DNA of 64,000 nt from Candidatus Bipolaricaulota bacterium (lineage in GTDB: Bacteria > Bipolaricaulota > Bipolaricaulia > Bipolaricaulales > Bipolaricaulaceae). This document shows, one piece after another, positions 2,021 to 29,762 of the stretch (positions are counted from its first letter, which is position 1; the number at the start of each line of letters is the position of its first letter). The notes below the pieces were generated by a model. It was not told the origin of the DNA and did no database searches. It was given only the letters and a program-made list of their open reading frames with translations. Position numbers and translations under genes: made by a program. The stretch spans positions 8,904 through 72,903 of the forward strand of contig JANXBC010000001.1 of assembly GCA_025060555.1 (NCBI GenBank), written 5' to 3'.

Positions 2021-2747
2021 CGCTTCCAAAAAAGCGAGTCTAAAGGCCATTCCGCGGTCGCAAAAGGTTGTTTACGCCATAGTTCAGCGGATGCGGGAGG
2101 CTATGGATCAAGGGAAACTCCGCCGTGGCGATCAGCTTCCCTCGGAATCGGAGCTTTGCAAGGAGCTTGGGGTTTCACGGGTTGCTGTGCGGGAGGCCTT
2201 AAAGATTTTGGAGGCCCTCGGCGCCGTGGAAATTCGCCACGGCAGCGGTACGTTCATCCCCGAGCACCCTCGCCCTCCCGTCATCGACCCTCTGCAGTTC
2301 TTGCTCTCCCTTGGAGATGCTGATCCCGAACACGTCAAAGAGCTCAGATTTATGGTGGAACTGGGTTTTTCCCGCATCGCTCAGCGGAAAATCACTGAAG
2401 CCGAGATCAAAAAGCTCGAAGAAAACCTAAACGCCTTGCGAAAAGCGTCGGAGAAAAAACACGTCACCTTGGATTTAGACCTAGAATTTCACTATCTCAT
2501 TTTGGAAGCCACACGAAACCCTTTGATCATTCAGCTAGGCAAAGCAATCCTTGGGCTATTCCACGACTCCATTGAAGCGGGCATCAGGGAACATCCCGAA
2601 GCTCCGGTGATCCACCACACCCTAATTTTCGAAGCCATGAAATCGCGGGACCCCCAAAAGTTAGAGGAAGCTTTGCTCGAGAGCTATCGCTATTGGCAAG
2701 AGCATTTGAGGCCAACGCGCAAAAGAGAGGGCAAGGATGAGAAATAG
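1938..2747 (+). CDS. GntR/FadR-family transcriptional regulator (wHTH plus FCD domain); true start probably an in-frame TTG near 1983-1998
   Basis: N-terminal GDQLPSESELCKELGVSRVAVREALKILE winged-helix signature and a C-terminal all-helical FCD-like domain. The listed start overlaps the GH3 stop. Confidence 0.85.
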   Translation: MFAEAGGSSPGNASILGRLSLARTKKGNASKKASLKAIPRSQKVVYAIVQRMREAMDQGKLRRGDQLPSESELCKELGVSRVAVREALKILEALGAVEIRHGSGTFIPEHPRPPVIDPLQFLLSLGDADPEHVKELRFMVELGFSRIAQRKITEAEIKKLEENLNALRKASEKKHVTLDLDLEFHYLILEATRNPLIIQLGKAILGLFHDSIEAGIREHPEAPVIHHTLIFEAMKSRDPQKLEEALLESYRYWQEHLRPTRKREGKDEK

Positions 2748-2898
2748 CGCGGAGATTTGGGCGTTTGGCCCTAATGGTACGCGGTTCATGCCAGGTGGTT
2801 ATCATCCCGAAACACAAAAAGAATCGGTGGTGGAGCGCGCAAAGCGCGCTTTGGATGGTTTGAACGTGGATGGCTTTGAGCTAAAGGGGAAACAATGA
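2737..2898 (+). pseudogene. 53-aa stub resembling the N-terminus of a xylose-isomerase-like TIM-barrel sugar isomerase (L-rhamnose isomerase type); likely a gene remnant
   Basis: Manual translation gives MRNSAEIWAFGPNGTRFMPGGYHPETQKESVVERAKRALDGLNVDGFELKGKQ*. The W..G..GTRF..G motif is typical of the N-terminus of these isomerases. The stop overlaps the xylB ATG (ATGA). Confidence 0.35.
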
Positions 2899-4409
2899 CA
2901 GCGGAGCTCCTCATAGGACTGGATATCGGGACCACTGGGGCGAAAGGGCTTCTTGTGTCATTGGATGGGCGAATAGTGGGGAGAAGTTTCGCTGAATACC
3001 CTCTATATACGCCACGTCCGGGCTGGTGCGAACAGATGCCTGATGATTGGTGGGGGGCGGCAGTAAAGGTTCTTAGGGAACTTGCCATCAACGCTTCGGG
3101 AGAAATCGCCGCCATCGGCCTCACCGGACAGATGCATGGCGCCGTGTTTTTGGATGGGAAACTCGAGGTTATCCGGCCTGCCATCTTATGGAATGATGCT
3201 CGTACGGGGCGTGAGTGTGCGGAAATCGAACACATTGTGGGGAAGGAATATCTGCGCAAAATCACGGGAAATCCAGCTTTGGCTGGTTTTCAAGCTCCCA
3301 AAATTCTGTGGTTAAGAAAACATGAGCCGGAAAACTACAAAAGAGTTGGGGCTGTGGTTCTTCCGAAGGACTACGTACGCCTCAAATTGACCGGAGACCT
3401 TGCCACTGATGTCTCTGATGCTTCCGGGACCCTGCTTTTGGACTTAGCTAAAAGGGATTGGTCAAACGAGATCCTCACAGCCCTTGACATCCCAAGGGAG
3501 TGGCTCCCCCAGACCTACGAAAGCCCGGAGGTTACCGGGAAGATCTCCAAGGAGGCGGAAAGGCTGACAGGAATACCGTGTGGGACGCCGGTGGTGGCGG
3601 GAGCGGGTGATAACGCCGCCTCCGCTGTCGGTGCGGGCGTGGTTAAAGATGGGACGGGGTTGGTCTCATTAGGATCATCAGGGGTGGTGTTTGTTCATTT
3701 GGACGAGCCGCGACCAGATCCAGCCGGAGCGATTCATTGTTTTTGCCATGCGGTGCCGGGGAAATATCACCTCATGGGCGTGATCCTCTCGGCTGGGGCC
3801 TCTCTCCGCTGGTTCCGCGATGTCTTGGGCTCCGAGGAAAAGGAGGTGGGGAGTCGAACGGGCCTTGACCCATACGAGCTCTTTACGCGGGAGGCGGAAT
3901 TTGCCCCCCCTGGAGCGGACGGGCTTTTTTTCCTCCCCTATCTCTCAGGCGAGCGCACTCCCCACATGGATCCGGCCGCGCGAGGGGCTTGGATTGGCCT
4001 TTCCCTTGCCCATCGCCGCCCCCATCTTGTGCGCGCACTTTTGGAAGGGGTCGCCTTTGCCCTAAAAGACGCCTTTGTGCGCATCCAGCGTTTGGGCCCG
4101 GACCCGCGGGAACTCCGCGCCGTAGGTGGAGGGATGCGAAGTTCCCTTTGGCGCACGGTCATCGCCTCTGTTTTGGAGGTCCCGTTACGACGTCTGGCAG
4201 TGGAGGAAGGAGCCGCCTATGGAGCTGCGCTCTTGGCCGGTGTTGGAGCAAAGCTTTACAATGACGTCTACGAAGCCGTGGATAAAGCCGTGAAACTTCA
4301 TGCTGAATGCACTTTACCAGATCCTCGTCTTGTGCAAATCTACCAAAAGATTTACCCCCTTTATGCCCGTCTCTATCCCTCCCTTAAGGCTACGGGGGTT
4401 TTCACATGA
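2895..4409 (+). CDS. xylB: Xylulokinase (FGGY carbohydrate kinase)
   Basis: N-terminal LGLDIGTTGAKG phosphate-1 motif, GAGDNAASAVGAG, FGGY C-domain, 504 aa. Confidence 0.9.
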   Translation: MTAELLIGLDIGTTGAKGLLVSLDGRIVGRSFAEYPLYTPRPGWCEQMPDDWWGAAVKVLRELAINASGEIAAIGLTGQMHGAVFLDGKLEVIRPAILWNDARTGRECAEIEHIVGKEYLRKITGNPALAGFQAPKILWLRKHEPENYKRVGAVVLPKDYVRLKLTGDLATDVSDASGTLLLDLAKRDWSNEILTALDIPREWLPQTYESPEVTGKISKEAERLTGIPCGTPVVAGAGDNAASAVGAGVVKDGTGLVSLGSSGVVFVHLDEPRPDPAGAIHCFCHAVPGKYHLMGVILSAGASLRWFRDVLGSEEKEVGSRTGLDPYELFTREAEFAPPGADGLFFLPYLSGERTPHMDPAARGAWIGLSLAHRRPHLVRALLEGVAFALKDAFVRIQRLGPDPRELRAVGGGMRSSLWRTVIASVLEVPLRRLAVEEGAAYGAALLAGVGAKLYNDVYEAVDKAVKLHAECTLPDPRLVQIYQKIYPLYARLYPSLKATGVFT

Positions 4410-8490: not shown

Positions 8491-9573
8491 ATGATTCACA
8501 AGATGCCTGGCCGGGGTTGGGAAGAGCTTGTGCGTAGGGTGCAGGAGGAGACGGCTCGCCGCTATCGGGAGAATCTCCTCCGACCTCGCCCGTTTCATTC
8601 TGTTTGGGCACCACTTACTGTCTCGGCTTATGAAGAAGCCCACCAATTGAAGAACACCCTGCTTCAGGAGTGTGCAGGGCGCTCCCTCCTCGATTTCTAT
8701 TCCGGCGAGGTGCACACCACGGAATATGGTCCTGTCCTTTCTCTTTGGGAAACGCCCCCGATCAAGCCCTTTATTCCTGAACGGGAGGTAGGCGAAGCTT
8801 GGATCATGCAGACCCTGCGCCTGTTACATGGGATTGGCAAAGCTACTGAGGCGCGCTTGAAACTCTCCGGCTACGTCACCCTGCGGGACCTCCTTTTTCA
8901 TCCGCGCTGGGCTTGGCAAGTGGAGCGGATCCTGGAGGCTGTGGAGAGACGGGACCTTCATACCCTTAACCATCTGGTAGCTCGTTGGTTTCCCGTGTCC
9001 CATCCCATCGCTCTAGCCCTTCTTGGGTTCGTGAAGCCCGAAGAGATCGTTTTCCTCGACATCGAAACCCTTGGGCTCTACACCGAGGCCGTCATTCTCA
9101 TTGGCCTTGCCTACCCACAAAACGGCGTCCTCCTCGTCAAGCACCTTGTTGTGCGAGAGATTGCTGAGGAGCTCCCGGTTCTCGTCGCTTTGCTCAAAGA
9201 GCTCCAAAGGGCAAAGGCGCTTGTTACCTATAACGGGCGAGCCTTCGATGTCAACTTCATCCAGGCCCGGCTGCGTTATTACGACCTTCCCCATAAAATC
9301 GACCTTCCGAATTTCGATCTCCTCCCGTTCACGCGGCGCTGTTTCCGGGAGTCCCTCCCCAACTGCCGCCTGGAGACCGTGGAGAAAGCCATTTCCGTGG
9401 AGCGCACGATCAACATCCCCAGCGCCCTCGTGCCCGAGTTCTACATGGAATATCTGCGGGAGAAGAACGTTGGGCCGTTGGTGGCCATCATCGAGCACAA
9501 CCGTCAAGATCTTCTTTCCCTCGTTCTTATTTTGCGGAAGCTTTGGGAGGAGTTGGTGATGCGTGGCCTTTGA
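8491..9573 (+). CDS. RNase H-like 3'-5' exonuclease domain protein (YprB/MrfB-like)
   Basis: VFLDIETLGL (Exo I-like), TYNGRAFDVNF and HNRQDLLSL motifs. Lies immediately upstream of a YprA-like helicase. Confidence 0.75.
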   Translation: MIHKMPGRGWEELVRRVQEETARRYRENLLRPRPFHSVWAPLTVSAYEEAHQLKNTLLQECAGRSLLDFYSGEVHTTEYGPVLSLWETPPIKPFIPEREVGEAWIMQTLRLLHGIGKATEARLKLSGYVTLRDLLFHPRWAWQVERILEAVERRDLHTLNHLVARWFPVSHPIALALLGFVKPEEIVFLDIETLGLYTEAVILIGLAYPQNGVLLVKHLVVREIAEELPVLVALLKELQRAKALVTYNGRAFDVNFIQARLRYYDLPHKIDLPNFDLLPFTRRCFRESLPNCRLETVEKAISVERTINIPSALVPEFYMEYLREKNVGPLVAIIEHNRQDLLSLVLILRKLWEELVMRGL

Positions 9574-22593: not shown

Positions 22594-23451
22594 TTGAAGG
22601 AGAAGGAGGTCATTGTGCTTAGGCTGGTTTTGCTTGTGCTGCTTGGTACCGCCCTTGCCGGGATGGCCCAAGGCCCGGTGGAGGAGCTTCTTTCTCAGGC
22701 CGATGCCCTTTACGACTGCGGGCATGGCAACTTTGAATTCACGGAGTATGAGGCGCGGCTTAGGGAAGCGATCAGCATCTGGGAAGGGGTTCTTCCTTTG
22801 CTGAACGACAGGGAAAGCCGACGTGCGGTTCTTGTGAAGCTTTCTCGGGCCTGGTTTGAACTTGCCGAAGGGTATCTCCAAAAGGATCAAGACAAAGAAG
22901 CAGCTTACAAGAAGGGCAAAGATTACGGGCTTAGTGCGCTGCGGTTGGACGGGGGGTTCGTGCTTGTGGAGGGGAAAGAGGGTTTTCGCGCAGCTTTACA
23001 AACAGCCTCGGATGTGGAGGCGCTCTTTTGGTATGGGAATAACCTTGGGCGTTGGTTAGCTTACCACTATTGGGAGGCATTGACGGGTGGGACCCGCGAT
23101 GTGTTTGCGGCGTTTGCGCGGTGCGCGGAACTAGATGAGAGCTATTGGGCGGGAGGGCCACGCCGCGCGCTCGCTAATTTTCTCGCCCAGACCCCAGGAT
23201 TCCTGGGCGGGGATTTGCAAAGGGCCAAAACAGAGTTTCAGCGGGCCCTGGAGCTCGCTCCCCATTTCCTCCAGAACTACGTGGATTATGCGGAGCATTG
23301 GGCGAAGAAAGTTGGGGACAGCGCGCTCTTTTGCTCATTAGTAGAGGAAGCTCTGAGACGAGGCGCAGAGCCGGAGGTTTTTTGGTCCTGGCCATTCTAC
23401 AACACTTTGGCCTTGCGGCGGGCGGGAAGTTTGCGCCAGGAATGCCGGTAG
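22594..23451 (+). CDS. TatT-family TPR-like secreted protein or lipoprotein (TRAP-T-associated family); no TRAP genes nearby
   Basis: Signal peptide. ALFWYGNNLGRW and YWAGGPRRALANFLAQTPGFLGGDL motifs are typical of the TatT family. Confidence 0.65.
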   Translation: MKEKEVIVLRLVLLVLLGTALAGMAQGPVEELLSQADALYDCGHGNFEFTEYEARLREAISIWEGVLPLLNDRESRRAVLVKLSRAWFELAEGYLQKDQDKEAAYKKGKDYGLSALRLDGGFVLVEGKEGFRAALQTASDVEALFWYGNNLGRWLAYHYWEALTGGTRDVFAAFARCAELDESYWAGGPRRALANFLAQTPGFLGGDLQRAKTEFQRALELAPHFLQNYVDYAEHWAKKVGDSALFCSLVEEALRRGAEPEVFWSWPFYNTLALRRAGSLRQECR

Positions 23452-23461
23452 TGTGCATCAC

Positions 23462-23489
23462 TTGACACCAGTTTACAGTGGTATATAAT
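23462..23489 (+). promoter_or_regulatory. Near-consensus sigma70 promoter driving the riboswitch leader of locus B
   Basis: TTGACA (23462-23467), 16-nt spacer, TATAAT (23484-23489). Confidence 0.65.
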
Positions 23490-23555
23490 GGAAGCACCTG
23501 GACAAGGATCCGGGTGAAAGGGGTGAGCAGGGCAGCCTAAGGGATCGGAAGACCG

Positions 23556-23648
23556 CCTGGCCTTCCGATAAAGGCAAACCCGTCGCAAGGCGGGGGCGCA
23601 AAGCCACAGGTCCCTCAGGGACGGCTGGGCTGCCGAAGAATGGCCAGG
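23556..23648 (+). promoter_or_regulatory. c-di-GMP-I (GEMM-I) riboswitch aptamer, copy 1 (core 23565-23638)
   Basis: Contains GGCAAACC. Helix CCCGUC/GGCGGG is capped by the GNRA loop GCAA. Also GCGCAAAGCC, hairpin GUCCC-UCA-GGGAC, and GGGCUGCCGAAG. Closing helix CCUGGCC (23556-62) pairs with GGCCAGG (23642-48). Confidence 0.8.
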
Positions 23649-24083
23649 AGATGGCTGCTGTTCATGATGGCATGCGCTTTGGGCTTTCCGGGCCTTGCCG
23701 GAAGTGTCTCCCGAACCGCTACCGTCTCCCTTTCCATCCCCGCCTTGAGCGTTCTTTCTCTCCCTGGGCGAGGGCTTTCCGGTCGGGAAATAGAGCTGGA
23801 GATTAGGCCCGATGAGCTGGTCCAGGGCGTTCTGCTCGTACCCCTTGAGGTAAAAAGCAATGTTCCGTGGGCGGTTACGGCACGGGTTCTCGCCGAGGCT
23901 CGTGCCGATCCCGTAGTCGGAGTACAGGGCGGCCCGGAGGTCTTGGTGGGAACGGAAGAGATCCCCCTCCTCTCGGGTCGGTCGGGGAAACATGAGCTCA
24001 CCTTGGTTGTAAAATTGGCCAATCTGGGGCAAGCACAGGACAAGGTGAGGCTCATGTTGAAGATAGCGGGAATGGGTCAATGA
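23640..24083 (+). CDS. Small secreted protein (147 aa), divergent paralogue of the locus B subunits; possibly decaying
   Basis: Signal peptide MARRWLLFMMACALGFPGLAGS. TATVSLSIPALSVLSL and VKSNVPWAVTARV parallel TATFTVPTLIRLQLS and VWSNRPWTLSVAA of the next gene. It lacks the C-terminal YTL motif. A competing antisense frame exists. Confidence 0.5.
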   Translation: MARRWLLFMMACALGFPGLAGSVSRTATVSLSIPALSVLSLPGRGLSGREIELEIRPDELVQGVLLVPLEVKSNVPWAVTARVLAEARADPVVGVQGGPEVLVGTEEIPLLSGRSGKHELTLVVKLANLGQAQDKVRLMLKIAGMGQ

Positions 24084-24132
24084 GGGACCCAGTTGGGAAA
24101 GGAGGTGAGAGCCGAAAGAAGATTTAGGTGTT

Positions 24133-24219
24133 GGGGTGACCGATAAAGGCAAACCCGTCGCAAGGCGGGGGCGCAAAGCCACAGGTCCCTCAGGGACGGC
24201 TGGGCTGCCGAAGCACCCC
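24133..24219 (+). promoter_or_regulatory. c-di-GMP-I (GEMM-I) riboswitch aptamer, copy 2 (core 24140-24213)
   Basis: The core is 74/74 identical to copy 1. It has a different closing helix: GGGGUG (24133-38) pairs with CACCCC (24214-19). Lies 66 nt upstream of the 24285 start codon. Confidence 0.8.
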
Positions 24220-24284
24220 AAGAGAAGCCAAAAACTCCCGGGGCAAGGAGGCCCGGTAAACAAAACTTCTCTTGGAGGTGCTCA

Positions 24285-24800
24285 ATGAAGAGCGTGAAGG
24301 TTTTGGCGGTTTTAGTGGCTGGAGTGATGGGCGTGGTGAGCGGGATGGCTCAAAGTGTGACAGCGAACTCCACAGCGACGTTTACGGTGCCGACGTTGAT
24401 TCGGTTGCAGCTCAGCGCTTCCACCATCAACTTCGGGACCCTCACCGAGGGTGACTACGATGTGGGCTACAAGGACGCCCTGAGCGCCCAGGTCGTGTAT
24501 GTTTGGAGCAACCGGCCTTGGACGCTCTCCGTGGCGGCGAACAGCGCGGCCTGGAACGGCCCGTGGGCCAAGCCCGCAAGCGACCTGCTTTTGCGTGTGG
24601 CTTCCGTGAACCGGCCGGAGCGCATCTCTTATTACCTAAACACCCTCACCGGCCTCACCACGAGCGGATTCACCGTTGCCCAGGGTCAACCGGGCGGGAA
24701 CTTCCAGCACACCATGGACTTCCGCGTTCTGGTGAGCTGGGACAACGACGTGGCCGGCAACTACTCGCTCGGCTTCACCTACACCCTCACCGCGCCGTGA
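24285..24800 (+). CDS. Locus B small secreted beta-rich subunit (pilin-like, 171 aa)
   Basis: RBS GGAGGTG. Signal peptide MKSVKVLAVLVAGVMGVVSGMAQS. The C-terminus is NYSLGFTYTLTAP. Confidence 0.9.
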   Translation: MKSVKVLAVLVAGVMGVVSGMAQSVTANSTATFTVPTLIRLQLSASTINFGTLTEGDYDVGYKDALSAQVVYVWSNRPWTLSVAANSAAWNGPWAKPASDLLLRVASVNRPERISYYLNTLTGLTTSGFTVAQGQPGGNFQHTMDFRVLVSWDNDVAGNYSLGFTYTLTAP

Positions 24801-24814
24801 CCCAGCGAAGGACG

Positions 24815-24852
24815 GGCAGCCCGGCTCCAGCGAAGAGCCGGGCTGCCTTTAT
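24815..24852 (+). terminator. Perfect 13-bp GC-rich hairpin after the small-subunit gene (attenuator or partial terminator)
   Basis: GGCAGCCCGGCTC (24815-27), loop CAGCGAA, GAGCCGGGCTGCC (24835-47), then TTTAT. Confidence 0.55.
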
Positions 24853-24861
24853 CCCGCTTCC

Positions 24862-25791
24862 ATGACCCGCAAACTCTTCCTCGGTTTAGTGGCATGGGGC
24901 CTCCTCGCGCTCCCCCTGGGGGCTCAGGACACAGGTTGGCGCAACCCCTCGCAAGACTATGGGGATTTTCGCAATCCCAAAGGGGCGTATTATGACGACA
25001 CGGATTACGCCTGGGCGGAACCCGGCCAAACCCACATCTTCTTTGGTTATGAATTCCTTATCCCGCAAACCGTAGAGATCGTGGGGATCGAGGTGCGTCT
25101 GGATGTTCGGCGCCACCCGGCAGGTGGGCCGTTCGTGGCGTATCTGGATGTGCAGCTTTCCGGGGACAGTGGCGCGACCTGGACGCGGGCCTACACTGCC
25201 GGCCCCATTGAGAGCGATTGGTCGGTCTTTATCCTGGGTGGCCCCACCGATCGGTGGGGAAGGGTCTGGCGTCCCGAGGAATTTGAGCCTTCCACGTTCA
25301 GGGTCCGCCTCACAGCCTGGGCGCCGCGCTGGCCCACGATTTACCTGGATTGGGTGGCTGTGCGCATTTACTACAGCACCGGCCTCACTCTAGAGGTGGC
25401 CCCCAAAACGGTGTCCTTGGGCACGCTCACCCTCGTGGACTACGACCAGGGTTATTTGGACCGTCTGGGAGCCCAGGCCGTAGAGCTCCGCAGTCCGGCC
25501 ACTTGGATCTTGTCCATCGCAGCGGTGCGAGCGGTCTGGAGCTACACCGGAACTCTGCCCGACCCCAAAAAGCCTTGCGGCCACCTCCTCTGGCGGGTGG
25601 AGTATGCCGAGGGCTCCGTGGACGCGGTGGAAAAGGACTTCATCCCCCTTTCCCTTTCAGAGCGGGCGGTGGCCAAGGGCCGAGCAGGCATGGCTAAGGT
25701 CAGCCTGAGCTTCCGCCTCCTTGTGGACTACGACACCACCTGGCCCGGCACCTACTCCCTGGACTTCCGCTACACCCTCACCAGCCCTTAG
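24862..25791 (+). CDS. Locus B two-domain secreted protein: novel N-domain plus subunit-like C-domain (tip-adhesin-like)
   Basis: Signal peptide MTRKLFLGLVAWGLLALPLGAQD. The C-domain segment TVSLGTLTLVDYDQGYLDRLGAQAVELRSPATWILSIAA parallels the 171-aa subunit. Ends YSLDFRYTLTSP. Confidence 0.9.
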   Translation: MTRKLFLGLVAWGLLALPLGAQDTGWRNPSQDYGDFRNPKGAYYDDTDYAWAEPGQTHIFFGYEFLIPQTVEIVGIEVRLDVRRHPAGGPFVAYLDVQLSGDSGATWTRAYTAGPIESDWSVFILGGPTDRWGRVWRPEEFEPSTFRVRLTAWAPRWPTIYLDWVAVRIYYSTGLTLEVAPKTVSLGTLTLVDYDQGYLDRLGAQAVELRSPATWILSIAAVRAVWSYTGTLPDPKKPCGHLLWRVEYAEGSVDAVEKDFIPLSLSERAVAKGRAGMAKVSLSFRLLVDYDTTWPGTYSLDFRYTLTSP

Positions 25792-25832
25792 ACCTTGTGC
25801 CGAAGTTTTCCTTCCCCCAAGATTGCCCTCGT

Positions 25833-26858
25833 ATGAAGCGTGCTTTCCTCCTTAGCTTTTTCTTCGTGGGTTTCCTCGGTGCAGCTTTCGAAGTGAACCT
25901 CCTGGAGGTAGACCTCCAGGCCCGACCTGGCCTAGTCCTTCCCTTCTCGTTCATTGTCAGGAACGAACTCGCTCAGCCTGAGCAGATTGTCCTTTACCTC
26001 GGCGACTGGGACCGCAACGAGTTCGGGGAGAATCAGTTTTACCAACCCGGCACGCTTGCCCGCTCCTCCGCTGCTTGGATCACCGTGGTGCCCACCTCCT
26101 TCGTTCTTGGGGCCGGCGAGGTGCGGGAGATCCAGGGTTCGGTGCAGATCCCTAACGACGCCAAACCCGGTACTTACTGGGCCATGGTATTCGTCCAAGG
26201 TGAGCCCCGCCTTGTCCCGTATGAAGGGGTTATGGTCACTGTGACGCGCCGGATCGGCATCAAGGTTTACATCACGGTTGAGCCCGCGGAGGCGCGCGGT
26301 GAGCTTCGGGGCGTGGAGGTGCGCGGCCTCAATCCGCTTTGGGCCTGGGTGAAGTTTGCCAACACCGGCACCCGGAACCTGCGGGAGGTCCGGGCCACGC
26401 TGCGAGTGGTGGATGTACAGGGCCGTACCGTGGCGGAGGCCAGCGCCGCACCTGTGCCGTGCCTTCCCGGCGCGGAGCGGTGGATCCGGGTGAACACGGA
26501 TTTCCGCCCCTCGCCTGGGGTGTACCAGGTTCTCGCCACCGTGGATTACGGCGGTGAGGCTCTCCTAGGCTTGACCCTGCGTTTGGCCGTTCGTCCCCTC
26601 TCCTTGTTTCCCTTGGGAGAAGGGCTTGGGATCCCTCAAGACCTCGACGGCAACGGGTTCTACGAGGACGTGAACGGCGACAGCCTCTTCAATGAGGTGG
26701 ACGTAGAGGTCTTGAGGGGGAACCTCATGAGCCCGGTCGTGCGTGCCAACCTCCGGGCCTTTGATTTCAACAACGACGGGGTTGTGGACGAGCAAGACGT
26801 AAAAGCTCTAGAAGCTCTCCTCGCAGCCATCCCGGCCAAACTTCCCGCCGGAAGATAA
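25833..26858 (+). CDS. Locus B secreted two-Ig-domain protein (DUF916/DUF3324-like, chaperone-like) with a C-terminal dockerin-like module; alternative GTG start at 25797
   Basis: Signal peptide MKRAFLLSFFFVGFLGAA. Segment AAWITVVPTSFVLGAGEVREIQGSVQIPNDAKPGTYWAMVFV is homologous to the locus A protein. C-terminal motifs DVNGDSLFNEVDVEVL and DFNNDGVVDEQDVKAL. Confidence 0.85.
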   Translation: MKRAFLLSFFFVGFLGAAFEVNLLEVDLQARPGLVLPFSFIVRNELAQPEQIVLYLGDWDRNEFGENQFYQPGTLARSSAAWITVVPTSFVLGAGEVREIQGSVQIPNDAKPGTYWAMVFVQGEPRLVPYEGVMVTVTRRIGIKVYITVEPAEARGELRGVEVRGLNPLWAWVKFANTGTRNLREVRATLRVVDVQGRTVAEASAAPVPCLPGAERWIRVNTDFRPSPGVYQVLATVDYGGEALLGLTLRLAVRPLSLFPLGEGLGIPQDLDGNGFYEDVNGDSLFNEVDVEVLRGNLMSPVVRANLRAFDFNNDGVVDEQDVKALEALLAAIPAKLPAGR

Positions 26859-26903: not shown

Positions 26904-29762
26904 ATGCGAGTTTTTGTCGGCGTGACCCTCGCGGGGTTTCTCGCCTTAGGGCAGGGCCTGGAACTCCTCCGCCTTTCCCCGCCGGCGAAAGTCCGCCCCG
27001 GTGATTTTGCCGTCCAAGTTTGGCAGATCGCCAATCGCTCCCCTTCGCCTATACAGGCCAAATTGCGCCCAGAGATCCCCGCGGGCTGGGAGATCCTAGG
27101 GCTTCCCGAAGCTCTTTCCCTTGGCCCTGGGGAGGAGGAGTTTCTTTTCCTCACGCTTTACGTTCCGCGCACGGCCAAAAGCGGGGTGCAACCGGTGCGC
27201 ATTCTCCTTCGCTGGGATGGGGAGGAGGTGGTTGCGGAGGCTACGGTGGAGGTGGAAACCGTGGCTGCTCTCATCCTTTCTCCCCCGGCTTCCCAGGCCG
27301 CCCCGCCAGGCGCGTCCCTCACATTTCCGCTCCGCGTGACGAACCGGGGAAATGCCCTGGACCGTGTCACCTTAGAGGTGCGCACCGCCGCGGGCTGGCG
27401 AGTGGAAGTGAGCCCTACTGAGCTTCCCTTGGCCCCTGGCGAGACGGGCGAAGCCCGTGTCACCCTGACCCTTCCTGCGGAGGCCCAGGTGGGACTGGAG
27501 GTAGTCTTGGCTACGGCCCGTTCAAGTCTTGCCCCGGAAGTGGAGGCCCGCACTGCCTGGTACGTGGAGGTCCTTCCCCCTGGGCCGGAGCGCGTCCCCG
27601 TGCAGCTTTACGCAGAATTGGCGATGCAGGGGCTGGCGCGTTTGGCCTACGACTTCCTTTCCGGGACCGGCACCTCGTTTTTGGGTTTCACCGGCCGGGG
27701 GACTGTGCTCGACGGGGCTTTGGAGCTTGCCGCACGCTGGTCCGGCCCTTGGGCCGCCCAGCCCTTCCAACTTTTGGATTTCCAGGCCACCTACGTTACG
27801 GACGCTTTAGAGATGCACGCCGGCCGGGTGGGCTTCGCCTTCGATTCCCTCCTTTCCCCGCTTGGCTTTTGGGGCCTGGGCGCGGAGCTTTCCCTTGGGG
27901 ATGTAAACCTGGCTTTGGGCTCGGGCTGGGAAGGCGAGCGTGGCAGGGCCGGTGGGCGGTTGACGTTGCGCGCCACATGGGGTGAGACGGGCAGTGCCTA
28001 CCGAGAAGAGCGAGGCAGTGATCGGCACAGCCAAGCCGGCACGATTTGGCTCGCCCTCCAGGCCCTAGAAAACGTGCGCTTCCAGGCCGAGGGCGGCGCG
28101 GCCCAGGTGAACGGCCTCACCCGCTTCGCCGGAGAAATGCGCCTCACCTGGGAGATCCCCGAACTTTTCCTCCTCGAGGCCCGCGGGTATGCCGTTGACC
28201 CGGGTTTCCCCGCCCTTTCGCCGGATCGGGTGGGGTTCCTCCTTTCCGGACGTTTGGGCGCGGAGGAGGCCGGCTTCCGTTTCACCTGTGAGTGGCAACG
28301 CGATAACCTCCGTGATCTTTCCCGCACTACACGCGTTTGGCAAGGGGCACAGGCAAGCTGGGATTTCTTTCCCATTGGGTGGCCTTTGCACTTTGGTTTC
28401 GGCCTTTCTTTGCGGCGCGCAGCCGATCTCTCGCTTTCGCCCATGCTGGATGAACGCACGGCCCACGCCGAAGTCATCGCTTCTTTCTCCTACCAAGATT
28501 TCACCCTCGGCGCGCAAGGGACATACACTTATTTTCAAAACCTTGTCTCTGGCTTCGCCTGGACGCGGGTTGAGTCTCGAGAATGGCTGGATCTTCGTTT
28601 TTCCCCGAATGTCTTGGTCTCCGTAGAATTTCGGCAAGCACGCTTTTCTTCTCCGAAAGAGGAAAGGACACAAGATGAGGCGGCATTGGTCCTCTCTGTG
28701 GACGAAAAGCTCCGGCTTTCTTGGGAGTATGGGTGTGCAGGTGGTCTAGCCCGCGCGGAATTCACCTGGGAGCCCGCCGCGGCTTTGACCATAAAGCTTG
28801 GGGCCGAGGCCAACTGGCAAGAAGCTGGACGACCCTTACGCTTCGGGGCCTCTTTGGAATTCACTCATAGCTTTTCTTGGGCTCCGCCTTTCTTGCCCGC
28901 CTTTGGCGTCCTTTCCGGCATAGTTTTTGCCGATTTAAACGGAAACAGCCGCCGTGATCGGGGTGAACCCGGCGTCCCTGGAGCAGTCCTCGCCCTCGAC
29001 GATGTCCAGGTTTCCTCCGGGAAAGACGGGGAATTTCGCTTCCCTGCGCGGGCACCCGGTGTGTACACGTTGCAAGTAGTACACACTCCCGCGGGGTACG
29101 CGGCCCCCCTTCACGAGCTATTGGTTTCTCTCGAGCTTGGGGAAAAGATGGAGATCGCCCTTCCCCTTTTGCCTTTGGCGAGGCTGGACGGCCTAATTTT
29201 TCTTGACGTCAATGCGGATGGGGTCTGGACGCCGGGCGAACAAGGTTTAAGTCGGGCTTATGTGCGCATTGTTCCTTCGGAGGGGAAGGTGCTCGAGGTT
29301 CCTTCCGATAGCCAGGGCCGATTCAGCTGGCCCGAGCTTCTTCCGGGGAAATATCGGGTGGAACTGGTTTTGGAATCCCTTCCTCCGCGTCACGAGCCGA
29401 CCACGCCAGTGGTGGCAGAGCTCGTTTTGCTGCCCGGAGAGAAGAAGAACGTGACTTTTGGCGTACGGGAGCGGCCCCGCCCGGTGGTAGTGATCCAGCC
29501 GCCGTTAGCAGATTTCACCTGGACGCCAAGCATTCCCAAGGCTGGTGAACCCGTGCTCTTCGACGGCACCCTCTCCCAGGCCTTCAACGGCGAAATCGTG
29601 AGCTACGCCTGGGATTTCAACAATGATGGCCACGTTGAGGCAGAAGGTGTGCGAGTAACCTGGGTTTTCCCGGAAGCGGGCTTCTATCTTGTCGCCCTCA
29701 TTGTCACCGACTCCGCTGGCTTCACCGGCCAGACCCAGTACCTTCTCCAAGTTCGCCCCTAA
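26904..29762 (+). CDS. Locus B large protein: signal peptide, NEW3/CARDB-like Ig domains, central beta-barrel-like region, SdrD-B/CarboxypepD_reg-like repeats, C-terminal PKD domain
   Basis: Signal peptide MRVFVGVTLAGFLALGQG. Junction LPPGPERVPV is shared with locus A (LPPPPERVSI). A ~430-aa amphipathic-strand region ends SLEFTHSF. Also VFADLNGNSRRDRGEPG, and PKD motif YAWDFNNDG...TDSAG. Confidence 0.9.
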   Translation: MRVFVGVTLAGFLALGQGLELLRLSPPAKVRPGDFAVQVWQIANRSPSPIQAKLRPEIPAGWEILGLPEALSLGPGEEEFLFLTLYVPRTAKSGVQPVRILLRWDGEEVVAEATVEVETVAALILSPPASQAAPPGASLTFPLRVTNRGNALDRVTLEVRTAAGWRVEVSPTELPLAPGETGEARVTLTLPAEAQVGLEVVLATARSSLAPEVEARTAWYVEVLPPGPERVPVQLYAELAMQGLARLAYDFLSGTGTSFLGFTGRGTVLDGALELAARWSGPWAAQPFQLLDFQATYVTDALEMHAGRVGFAFDSLLSPLGFWGLGAELSLGDVNLALGSGWEGERGRAGGRLTLRATWGETGSAYREERGSDRHSQAGTIWLALQALENVRFQAEGGAAQVNGLTRFAGEMRLTWEIPELFLLEARGYAVDPGFPALSPDRVGFLLSGRLGAEEAGFRFTCEWQRDNLRDLSRTTRVWQGAQASWDFFPIGWPLHFGFGLSLRRAADLSLSPMLDERTAHAEVIASFSYQDFTLGAQGTYTYFQNLVSGFAWTRVESREWLDLRFSPNVLVSVEFRQARFSSPKEERTQDEAALVLSVDEKLRLSWEYGCAGGLARAEFTWEPAAALTIKLGAEANWQEAGRPLRFGASLEFTHSFSWAPPFLPAFGVLSGIVFADLNGNSRRDRGEPGVPGAVLALDDVQVSSGKDGEFRFPARAPGVYTLQVVHTPAGYAAPLHELLVSLELGEKMEIALPLLPLARLDGLIFLDVNADGVWTPGEQGLSRAYVRIVPSEGKVLEVPSDSQGRFSWPELLPGKYRVELVLESLPPRHEPTTPVVAELVLLPGEKKNVTFGVRERPRPVVVIQPPLADFTWTPSIPKAGEPVLFDGTLSQAFNGEIVSYAWDFNNDGHVEAEGVRVTWVFPEAGFYLVALIVTDSAGFTGQTQYLLQVRP

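Follow-up and report, generated by a model that had tools for sequence, protein, structure and literature searches.

The 64,000-nucleotide stretch of DNA analysed here (the window; positions 8,904 to 72,903 of contig JANXBC010000001.1, assembly GCA_025060555.1, from a Candidatus Bipolaricaulota bacterium) carries two RNA aptamers of identical sequence within a single operon. We conclude that they are probably two separate functional class-I cyclic di-GMP (c-di-GMP) riboswitches, each controlling translation of the cistron that follows it. On the + strand, a TAtT-like gene (22594-23451) is followed in order by a promoter, aptamer 1, open reading frame 1 (ORF1), aptamer 2, ORF2, ORF3, ORF4 and ORF5. 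The two aptamers are as follows:

23564-23638, + strand: aptamer 1, c-di-GMP-I type; RF03167 match of 75.1 bits; GCAA tetraloop at 23585-23588
24139-24213, + strand: aptamer 2; RF03167 match of 74.8 bits; identical to aptamer 1 over 24140-24213

Two identical c-di-GMP-I aptamers in one operon

A repeat search of the sequence returned a single long direct repeat, in which 23565-23638 and 24140-24213 are 100% identical over 74 nucleotides (nt) at a spacing of 575 nt. Nothing similar was found beyond these positions, at which the identity ends exactly. Both copies contain the motifs GGCAAACC, GCGCAAAGCC, GGGCUGCCGAAG and GUCCC-UCA-GGGAC, and in both the P2 helix is formed by CCCGUC/GGCGGG with a GCAA loop. 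These copies, their spacing and their motifs had been described in a first-pass annotation, and on reading the sequence all were as stated there. When the whole window was searched with Rfam cmscan at gathering thresholds, exactly two RNAs were found, one at each copy. The best model for each was RF03167 (c-di-GMP-I-GGC; gathering score 59; E 5e-16 for aptamer 1), which belongs to the same clan, CL00126, as RF01051. An exact repeat of 74 nt together with a covariance-model match of 75 bits is far beyond chance.

The predicted structure is also conserved. Among 19 orthologs, 100% of cells in P1, P2 and P3 were paired, 5 pairs in P2/P3 covaried, and the loop read GCAA or GCGA. The first-pass annotation had proposed a search for covariation in related leaders, and this was found: aptamer 1 together with the extension of its P1 helix was 96.8% paired in 19 leaders, with 8 pairs changed on both sides, a pairing value that none of 500 shuffles reached (slid controls were 29-45% paired). 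Both aptamers lie upstream of, and are structurally coupled to, the expression signals of a gene, namely the AUG of ORF1 and a strand complementary to the Shine-Dalgarno (SD) sequence of ORF2.

Binding pocket and family assignment

The nucleotides of the Vibrio cholerae Vc2 riboswitch that contact the ligand are G20, A47 and C92 (PMC4744006). In the cmscan alignments their equivalents are G23573, A23600 and C23633 in aptamer 1 and G24148, A24175 and C24208 in aptamer 2, so that the pocket is canonical. Together with the Rfam clan matches, this upholds the earlier reading of both copies as GEMM-I-type c-di-GMP aptamers, and we infer that c-di-GMP is the ligand of both.

RF03167 is the best model not only for the window copies but also for nearly all copies in relatives, and the aptamers might accordingly be members of the c-di-GMP-I-GGC class, with an altered pocket that may recognise something other than c-di-GMP. 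The core consensus of the two families, GACGCGAAgCc in RF03167 and GACGCAAAgCc in RF01051, differs at one conserved position, RF03167 model position 37, which corresponds to Vc2 A47. Presumably the 'GGC' of the family name refers to positions 20/47/92, with the A47 equivalent as the middle G. Both window copies, however, read GGCGCAAAGCC, placing an A at this position, and the same A was found in 42 of 42 related Bipolaricaulota copies, which read CGCAAAGCC or, in a single case (aptamer 2 of L019), CGCAAAACC. In addition, two orthologous copies (aptamer 2 of L011 and of L018) score best on RF01051, at 65 and 62 bits against a gathering score of 35 bits. The preference for RF03167 is plausibly due to a short P3 without the tetraloop receptor, which RF01051 would count as a deletion. 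We consider membership of the GGC class improbable and file the aptamers under c-di-GMP-I, because the nucleotide that distinguishes the GGC variant was tested and is absent. The first-pass assignment to RF01051 thus did not hold for the best-scoring model, but canonical c-di-GMP-I is the better description of the nucleotides.

Conservation of the layout in relatives

Related loci numbered 22 in a scan of one genome per species. Wherever a title names a phylum, it is Bipolaricaulota/Acetothermia; three loci are labelled Thermotogaceae or Thermotoga. Upstream DNA was sufficient in 19 loci, counting the window, and in 19 of 19 two aptamers lie 570-850 nt apart. The layout of two aptamers with ORF1 between them extends down to 51% ORF2 identity, and the gene order of the operon is kept in related loci as judged by tblastn. 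Each aptamer serves its own downstream cistron: since a conserved ORF1 lies between them, the two are not parts of one leader. The earlier description of both aptamers as lying in 'one leader/operon' is therefore right about the operon and wrong about the leader, which is interrupted by a conserved ORF of 147 amino acids (aa).

One related locus, L021, contains a third aptamer of the same type (2600-2674; RF03167, 64.1 bits) with a promoter-like TTGACG...TAAACT of its own. An ORF of 107 aa (2718-3041) with a weak ribbon-helix-helix match begins 43 nt downstream of it, and the c-di-GMP riboswitch regulon of the phylum may accordingly be wider.

Gene conversion between the two aptamers

Within a genome, the identity of aptamer 1 and aptamer 2 was 0.97 in the window's clade (the window, L001, L002, L004, L005 and L006) and 0.69 in a distant clade (L009-L021). 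The distant clade has two distinct aptamer sequence types, the orthologs of which are 0.85-0.90 identical. Because aptamer 2 of the window's clade resembles aptamer 1 of the distant clade (0.83) and not its aptamer 2 (0.685), aptamer 2 has evidently been overwritten by aptamer-1 sequence. Eight genome-specific substitutions are common to both copies (5 in L002, 2 in L001 and 1 in L006); in L002 these comprise four P2 substitutions, which form two compensatory pairs, and one loop change. Of 720 possible pairings of the copies, the true pairing by genome had the minimum total difference, a value at which 12 of the 720 tie. The 5' border of the tract is the same in all members of the clade, the nucleotide before the repeat being U in copy 1 and A in copy 2, and the flanks, which constitute two different expression platforms, are unrelated between copies. 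In L007 (1418-1514) and L008 (1943-2039), aptamer 2 is a mosaic of an aptamer-1-like 5' part and an aptamer-2-like P3, the P3 hairpin being 22 nt longer than in other loci. These mosaics apparently record several partial conversion tracts and an intermediate stage of conversion.

Taken together, these patterns indicate that, in the window's clade, repeated gene conversion confined to the aptamer core put aptamer-1 sequence in the place of aptamer 2, and that homogenisation went on after speciation. The aptamers themselves appear to be ancient paralogs that were duplicated together with the subunit gene. When the ORF1 and ORF2 families were aligned with hhalign, they matched with a probability of 96.9 (E 2e-10) at ~20% identity and have a common SNxPW motif; ORF1 and ORF2 are accordingly distant, old paralogs, with the C-terminal half of ORF3 as a third.

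The first-pass annotation had attributed the identity to 'recent duplication or gene conversion'. Gene conversion is borne out by the substitutions common to both copies. A recent tandem duplication of the aptamer might seem attractive, as a perfect 74-nt direct repeat 575 nt apart looks young, but we regard it as very improbable: every relative that is complete enough has two aptamers with ORF1 between them, a phylum-wide layout, the aptamers are ~30% different in the distant clade, the flanks, ORF1 and ORF2 are highly diverged, and lineage-specific changes are common to both copies. We give even less credence to the view that the identity was kept by purifying selection alone or is an artefact of assembly. 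Aptamer cores are strongly constrained, and the window derives from a metagenome-assembled genome; however, functional copies in the distant clade tolerate ~30% divergence, and selection alone does not predict identical compensatory P2 substitutions in the two copies of L002. As the source of the repeat, an assembly artefact is unlikely because five independent metagenome-assembled genomes from different projects carry the same near-identical pair.

The perfect 74-nt repeats, 575 nt apart, are also a substrate for a recombinational deletion of ORF1 that would join the aptamer 1 leader to the aptamer 2 platform.

Aptamer 2 and the Shine-Dalgarno sequence of ORF2

Three strands around aptamer 2 make up its expression platform:

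24133-24138, + strand: 5' strand of the aptamer 2 P1 extension, GGGGUG, an SD mimic; pairs with CACCCC (24214-19) and covaries with the anti-SD strand across loci
24214-24227, + strand: anti-SD strand, CACCCCAAGAGAAG; its alternative partners are 24133-38 (P1 extension) and 24266-24280 (SD strand)
24266-24280, + strand: SD strand, CUUCUCUUGGAGGUG, which comprises the ORF2 SD GGAGGUG (24274-80) and the 3' arm of a sequestering hairpin, as predicted by folding

In 22 of 22 loci an anti-SD sequence, CACCYCC(AAGA...), lies directly 3' of aptamer 2 and is complementary to the SD region of ORF2, GGRGGUG. The resulting hairpin comprises 12-15 bp (14 bp in the window) with predicted energies of -17.7 to -23.5 kcal/mol, again in 22 of 22 loci. 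The first six nucleotides of the anti-SD are also complementary to the 5' flank of aptamer 2, where an SD mimic reads GGGGUG or GAGGUG; for the GGGGUG:CACCCC duplex, the energies calculated in the window's clade were -11.6 to -13.6 kcal/mol. A change in one of the three strands is accompanied by changes in the other two, as seen on comparison of L009 (GAGGUG/CACCUCC/GGAGGUG) with L010 (GGGGU/CACCCCC/GGGGGUG).

The SD of ORF2 was paired in the minimum free energy (MFE) fold of 14 of 14 loci tested. When it was forced open, the best structure of every tested locus except L016 had the aptamer closed and the anti-SD engaged in the P1 extension, which cost 3.7-15 kcal/mol. Affinities of c-di-GMP-I riboswitches are picomolar to nanomolar, and this cost is within the range of c-di-GMP binding energies. 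We propose that in the ligand-free state the anti-SD pairs with the ORF2 SD and sequesters it. Binding of c-di-GMP would lock aptamer 2, upon which GGGGUG would capture CACCCC as the P1 extension and the SD would be released. Aptamer 2 is thus likely a translational ON switch of classical design for ORF2, the direction of which we infer from the predicted folds.

Complementarity between the two flanks of each aptamer had been noted in the first-pass annotation as the mark of independent aptamers. The complementarity is real and each aptamer has a closing helix of its own, but the flanks are more than P1 extensions, in that they form the expression platforms.

Aptamer 1 and the start codon of ORF1

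The elements that concern aptamer 1 and its platform are as follows:

23640-24083, + strand: ORF1, 147 aa, taken from the ORF list, with an N-terminal signal-peptide-like segment; a distant paralog of ORF2
23556-23562, + strand: 5' strand of the aptamer 1 P1 extension, CCUGGCC; pairs with GGCCAGG (23642-23648)
23531-23539, + strand: leader strand GGCAGCCUA, proposed anti-aptamer strand of the ligand-free fold; complementary to the aptamer 1 3' strand UGGGCUGCC (23626-23634)
23544-23569, + strand: alternative anti-P1 hairpin, AUCGGAAG (23544-51) with CUUCCGAU (23562-69); seen in the MFE fold, it would sequester the P1 5' strand

The AUG of ORF1 (23640-42) sits one nucleotide past aptamer 1, with P1 on one side and GGCCAGG (23642-48), the 3' strand of the P1 extension, on the other. 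ORF1 homologs (23-67% identity) were found in 19 of 19 loci, each starting 1-2 nt after aptamer 1 with AUG or, in two loci, GUG. The six nucleotides after the start codon are the 3' strand of the P1 extension, the 5' strand of which is just upstream of aptamer 1. This 7-bp extension was 86.5% paired in the 19 loci, with 3 pairs changed on both sides, and it covaries with the second codon of ORF1 (CCUGGCC/GGCCAGG, CCUGACC/GGUCAGG and CAGCC/GGCUG). In constrained folds, closing aptamer 1 enclosed the AUG in a long interrupted helix in all loci, and the closed form cost 4-14 kcal/mol over the MFE fold.

For the ligand-free state, a conserved leader strand, GGCARC, is complementary to the 3' strand of aptamer 1, GYUGCC. 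This leader:aptamer helix was 88.3% paired in the 19 loci, compared to 5-46% for slid controls, with one covarying pair (GC in 10, AU in 6 and GU in 2). In the MFE fold of the window, the leader:aptamer helix and the anti-P1 hairpin both form, and the AUG is unpaired. We propose that closure of P1, stabilised by c-di-GMP, would bury the ORF1 AUG in the CCUGGCC/GGCCAGG extension, and that in the ligand-free state the leader strand GGCAGCC (23531-37) would occupy the 3' strand of aptamer 1 and leave the AUG open.

These folds incline us, somewhat more than evenly, towards aptamer 1 as an OFF switch for ORF1. The starts of ORF3 (24862), ORF4 (25797) and ORF5 (26904) have no recognisable SD, while the SD of ORF2 is strong (GGAGGUG); because ORF3, ORF4 and ORF5 are SD-less, an SD-less ORF1 with start-site accessibility as its control point is credible. 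Our confidence in the OFF assignment is only moderate because the ligand-free fold is inconsistently predicted, covariation in the leader helix is thin, and opposite polarities on one mRNA could conflict.

Two further pairings were rejected. The anti-P1 hairpin was ruled out as a general feature, as it is restricted to L010 and the window's clade and none of its pairs covary. Pairing of the GGCAGCC leader strand with GGCUGCU (ORF1 codons 5-7) in the ligand-bound state, which constrained folds had suggested, was 64.7% paired, a level also reached by shuffles and slid controls.

Opposite or equal polarity of the two switches

Identical sensors with opposite outputs would allow a single c-di-GMP threshold to toggle two paralogous fibre subunits on one constitutive mRNA, with ORF1 turned off and ORF2 turned on, and conversion, or selection for it, would equalise the affinities of the sensors. 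If this were true, the hand-over between fibre subunits would be sharp, since the sensors would have exactly equal affinity. We offer this as a tentative proposal that is less likely than not to hold.

It is likewise possible, although we would not bet on it, that the two switches have the same polarity (both ON), or that aptamer 1 acts on the whole operon via transcription or mRNA stability, the result being a serial and more digital gate. Tandem c-di-GMP-I riboswitches are common, with 347 doublets and 12 triplets catalogued, and a sharper response is the benefit proposed for them (PMC9481103). Two switches of opposite polarity on the same mRNA could, moreover, defeat each other in the event of transcriptional polarity, the ligand-free structure of leader 1 is inconsistently predicted, and conserved SD-like elements upstream of both aptamers are left without an explanation. 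On the other hand, the ORF1 start codon lies inside the covarying P1 extension in 19 of 19 loci and is enclosed whenever the aptamer is closed, no terminator-like hairpin was predicted after aptamer 1, and the difference in construction between the two platforms speaks against a simple redundancy in series.

Several points weigh against two riboswitches of opposite polarity in a fibre operon. With aptamer 1 as an OFF switch and aptamer 2 as an ON switch, an untranslated ORF1 at high c-di-GMP could exert transcriptional polarity on ORF2-5 and so work against the ON switch; it is because of this effect that the opposite-polarity reading is uncertain. Covariation in the leader:aptamer helix is confined to a single column, which may reflect one evolutionary event, and only 4 of 19 loci have the leader strand paired with the aptamer in their MFE folds. 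The anti-P1 hairpin, which belongs to the window's clade plus L010, is 88.8% paired with no covariation. The clan filter of cmscan leaves the best-scoring clan member for each copy, and the RF01051 score of the window copies is hidden by it; one more clan match per window copy, above its own gathering score, lies beneath the filter and is most probably RF01051. The function of the operon rests on a weak fold similarity (TM 0.49) and on generic surface domains, and all of the evidence comes from metagenome-assembled sequence. Lastly, a motif scan for the GGDEF of diguanylate cyclases found none in the 64-kb window, a result that says little about the rest of the genome.

Promoter and leader elements

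The following elements accompany the aptamers:

23462-23489, + strand: sigma-70-type promoter, TTGACA-16-TATAAT; 12 of 12 consensus positions
23496-23515, + strand: 5'-terminal leader hairpin, CCUGGA/UCCGGG; predicted in the MFE fold
23516-23527, + strand: SD-like element GAAAGGGGUGAG with no start codon after it; a purine-rich GGRGG core is at this position in 19 of 19 aligned leaders
24097-24109, + strand: second SD-like element, GAAAGGAGGUGAG, likewise followed by no start codon; conserved among members of the window's clade

The promoter had been proposed on first pass, and by consensus it is real; a TTGACA...TATAAT arrangement also precedes aptamer 1 in most related loci. Transcription is expected to start near 23496 and would give one mRNA encoding ORF1-ORF5. 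The interval from ORF1 to aptamer 2 has no predicted site resembling a promoter or a terminator. The 5' hairpin recurs, as judged by eye, at the same place with a different sequence in each relative, for instance CCCGGCGG/CCGCCGGG in L001 and CCAGUC/GACUGG in L005.

The first SD-like element lies 36 nt upstream of aptamer 1, and the second is 13 nt past the stop codon of ORF1, which leaves 30 nt to aptamer 2. Either could be a pairing partner or an mRNA stabiliser of the STAB-SD type, elements that act by binding 30S subunits. That the leader:aptamer helix brings the first element next to the ORF1 AUG, as a split ribosome-binding site, is a weak idea: the spacings sum to ~12 nt, to which the helix adds its own width, a like element also precedes aptamer 2 although ORF2 has its own SD, and ORF3, ORF4 and ORF5 have no SD at all.

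Relation to known systems

Class-I c-di-GMP riboswitches, their control of adhesins, pili and motility, and their occurrence in multiple copies per transcript or locus are already known. In common with RF01051 and Vc2, the aptamers described here have three helices (P1, P2 capped by a GNRA loop, and P3), conserved junctions of the GGCAAACC and ACGCAAAGCC types, equivalents of G20, A47 and C92, and the nucleotides for the C44-G83 interhelix pair; surface or lifestyle genes also appear to be controlled, as judged from gene content. In contrast to RF01051 and Vc2, P3 is short and lacks the 11-nt tetraloop receptor, the loop is GCAA (GYRA), the platforms are predicted to be translational and not terminators, and the host phylum is uncultured; clade-A copies also have a G where the RF01051 consensus has an A in GGGACGC. 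Likeness to RF03167 extends to the best covariance-model score (75 bits), the short P3 and an AAAGGC 5' junction, but not to the Vc2-A47 position, which is A and not G in every copy here.

More than one c-di-GMP-I aptamer per transcript is also a feature of tandem riboswitches such as Bc3-5 of Bacillus thuringiensis. Those, however, share one 5' untranslated region and gate one ORF in series, whereas here a gene lies between aptamers that have their own platforms. Serial tandems are defined by at least two riboswitches in one 5' untranslated region that gate the same ORF, and the conserved 147-aa ORF between the aptamers sets this locus apart from them. A closer parallel in arrangement is the seven-riboswitch region of Desulfobacca acetoxidans, where highly similar c-di-GMP-I aptamers lie within a few kb with ORFs between them; that cluster differs in mixing adenosylcobalamin and c-AMP-GMP sensors and in using terminators, and neither concerted evolution nor paralogous downstream genes were described there (PMC9481103).

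As regards the evolution of the two copies, similarity is greatest to systems of another kind. Bacterial repeats such as rRNA operons and tuf genes undergo concerted evolution by gene conversion. As in those systems, paralogs within a genome are closer here than orthologs between genomes and tract borders are sharp, but the converted unit is a 74-nt cis-regulatory RNA aptamer. In the papers searched there was no report of gene conversion or concerted evolution of riboswitches, which does not prove that none exists, and a search on c-di-GMP riboswitches of Bipolaricaulota found nothing relevant. What is new is the host phylum, the duplicated module of aptamer and subunit gene, the use of two platforms on one sensor sequence, and the concerted evolution of a riboswitch aptamer; these elements do not add up to a new kind of system.

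Riboswitch-based c-di-GMP control would thereby be placed in Candidatus Bipolaricaulota (Acetothermia), and the findings point to a conserved five-gene operon of surface proteins, possibly for a donor-strand-exchange fibre, as the main riboswitch-controlled output of the phylum. The locus is a clean comparative case of concerted evolution in a cis-regulatory RNA of 74 nt: the converted tract begins and ends where the functional aptamer does. It is also a natural experiment, in that the same sensor on two expression platforms makes the contribution of the platform separable. For annotation it carries a warning, as the top Rfam model, the GGC variant, is not the right family here, its distinguishing nucleotide being absent.

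Proteins encoded by the operon

The cistrons downstream of aptamer 2 are as follows:

24285-24800, + strand: ORF2, 171 aa, secreted, all-beta, putative fibre or pilus subunit; from homologs, AlphaFold and Foldseek
24862-25791, + strand: ORF3, C-terminal half paralogous to ORF2; from comparison with ORF2
25797-26858, + strand: ORF4, dockerin domain; from Pfam
26904-29762, + strand: ORF5, 952 aa, with NPCBM_assoc, SdrD_B, CarboxypepD_reg and PKD domains; from Pfam

Pfam searches placed no family on ORF1, ORF2 or ORF3, which supply three paralogous, secreted proteins rich in beta structure (in ORF3, the C-terminal half). ORF2 has 71 homologs, and all source names given are Bipolaricaulota/Acetothermia. 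Its AlphaFold model (mean predicted local distance difference test, pLDDT, of 81.5) had as its best Foldseek matches in the PDB the TLP-1a/b fibrils (9ikj_A and 9ikk_A; E 5e-4 and 1.3e-3; template-modelling, TM, scores of 0.49-0.51). TLP-1a/b are uncharacterised environmental donor-strand-exchange fibrils that were obtained by cryo-electron microscopy from pond water and are proposed to be pili (PMC11494351). In donor-strand-exchange subunits of this sort, an Ig-like fold is completed by the N-terminal donor strand of the adjoining protomer. The operon plausibly makes a surface fibre or adhesin, and the pattern of SD sequences fits ORF2 as its abundantly made subunit.

An antisense ORF of 288 aa (23397-24263, - strand), which covers ORF1 entirely as well as the two aptamers, almost certainly arises spuriously from the high G+C content and is not to be annotated as a gene. 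Finally, the octamer GGGCTGCC at 24840-24847, 15 nt upstream of the ORF3 start codon, is the conserved 3' strand of the aptamer, an occurrence that may be due to chance.

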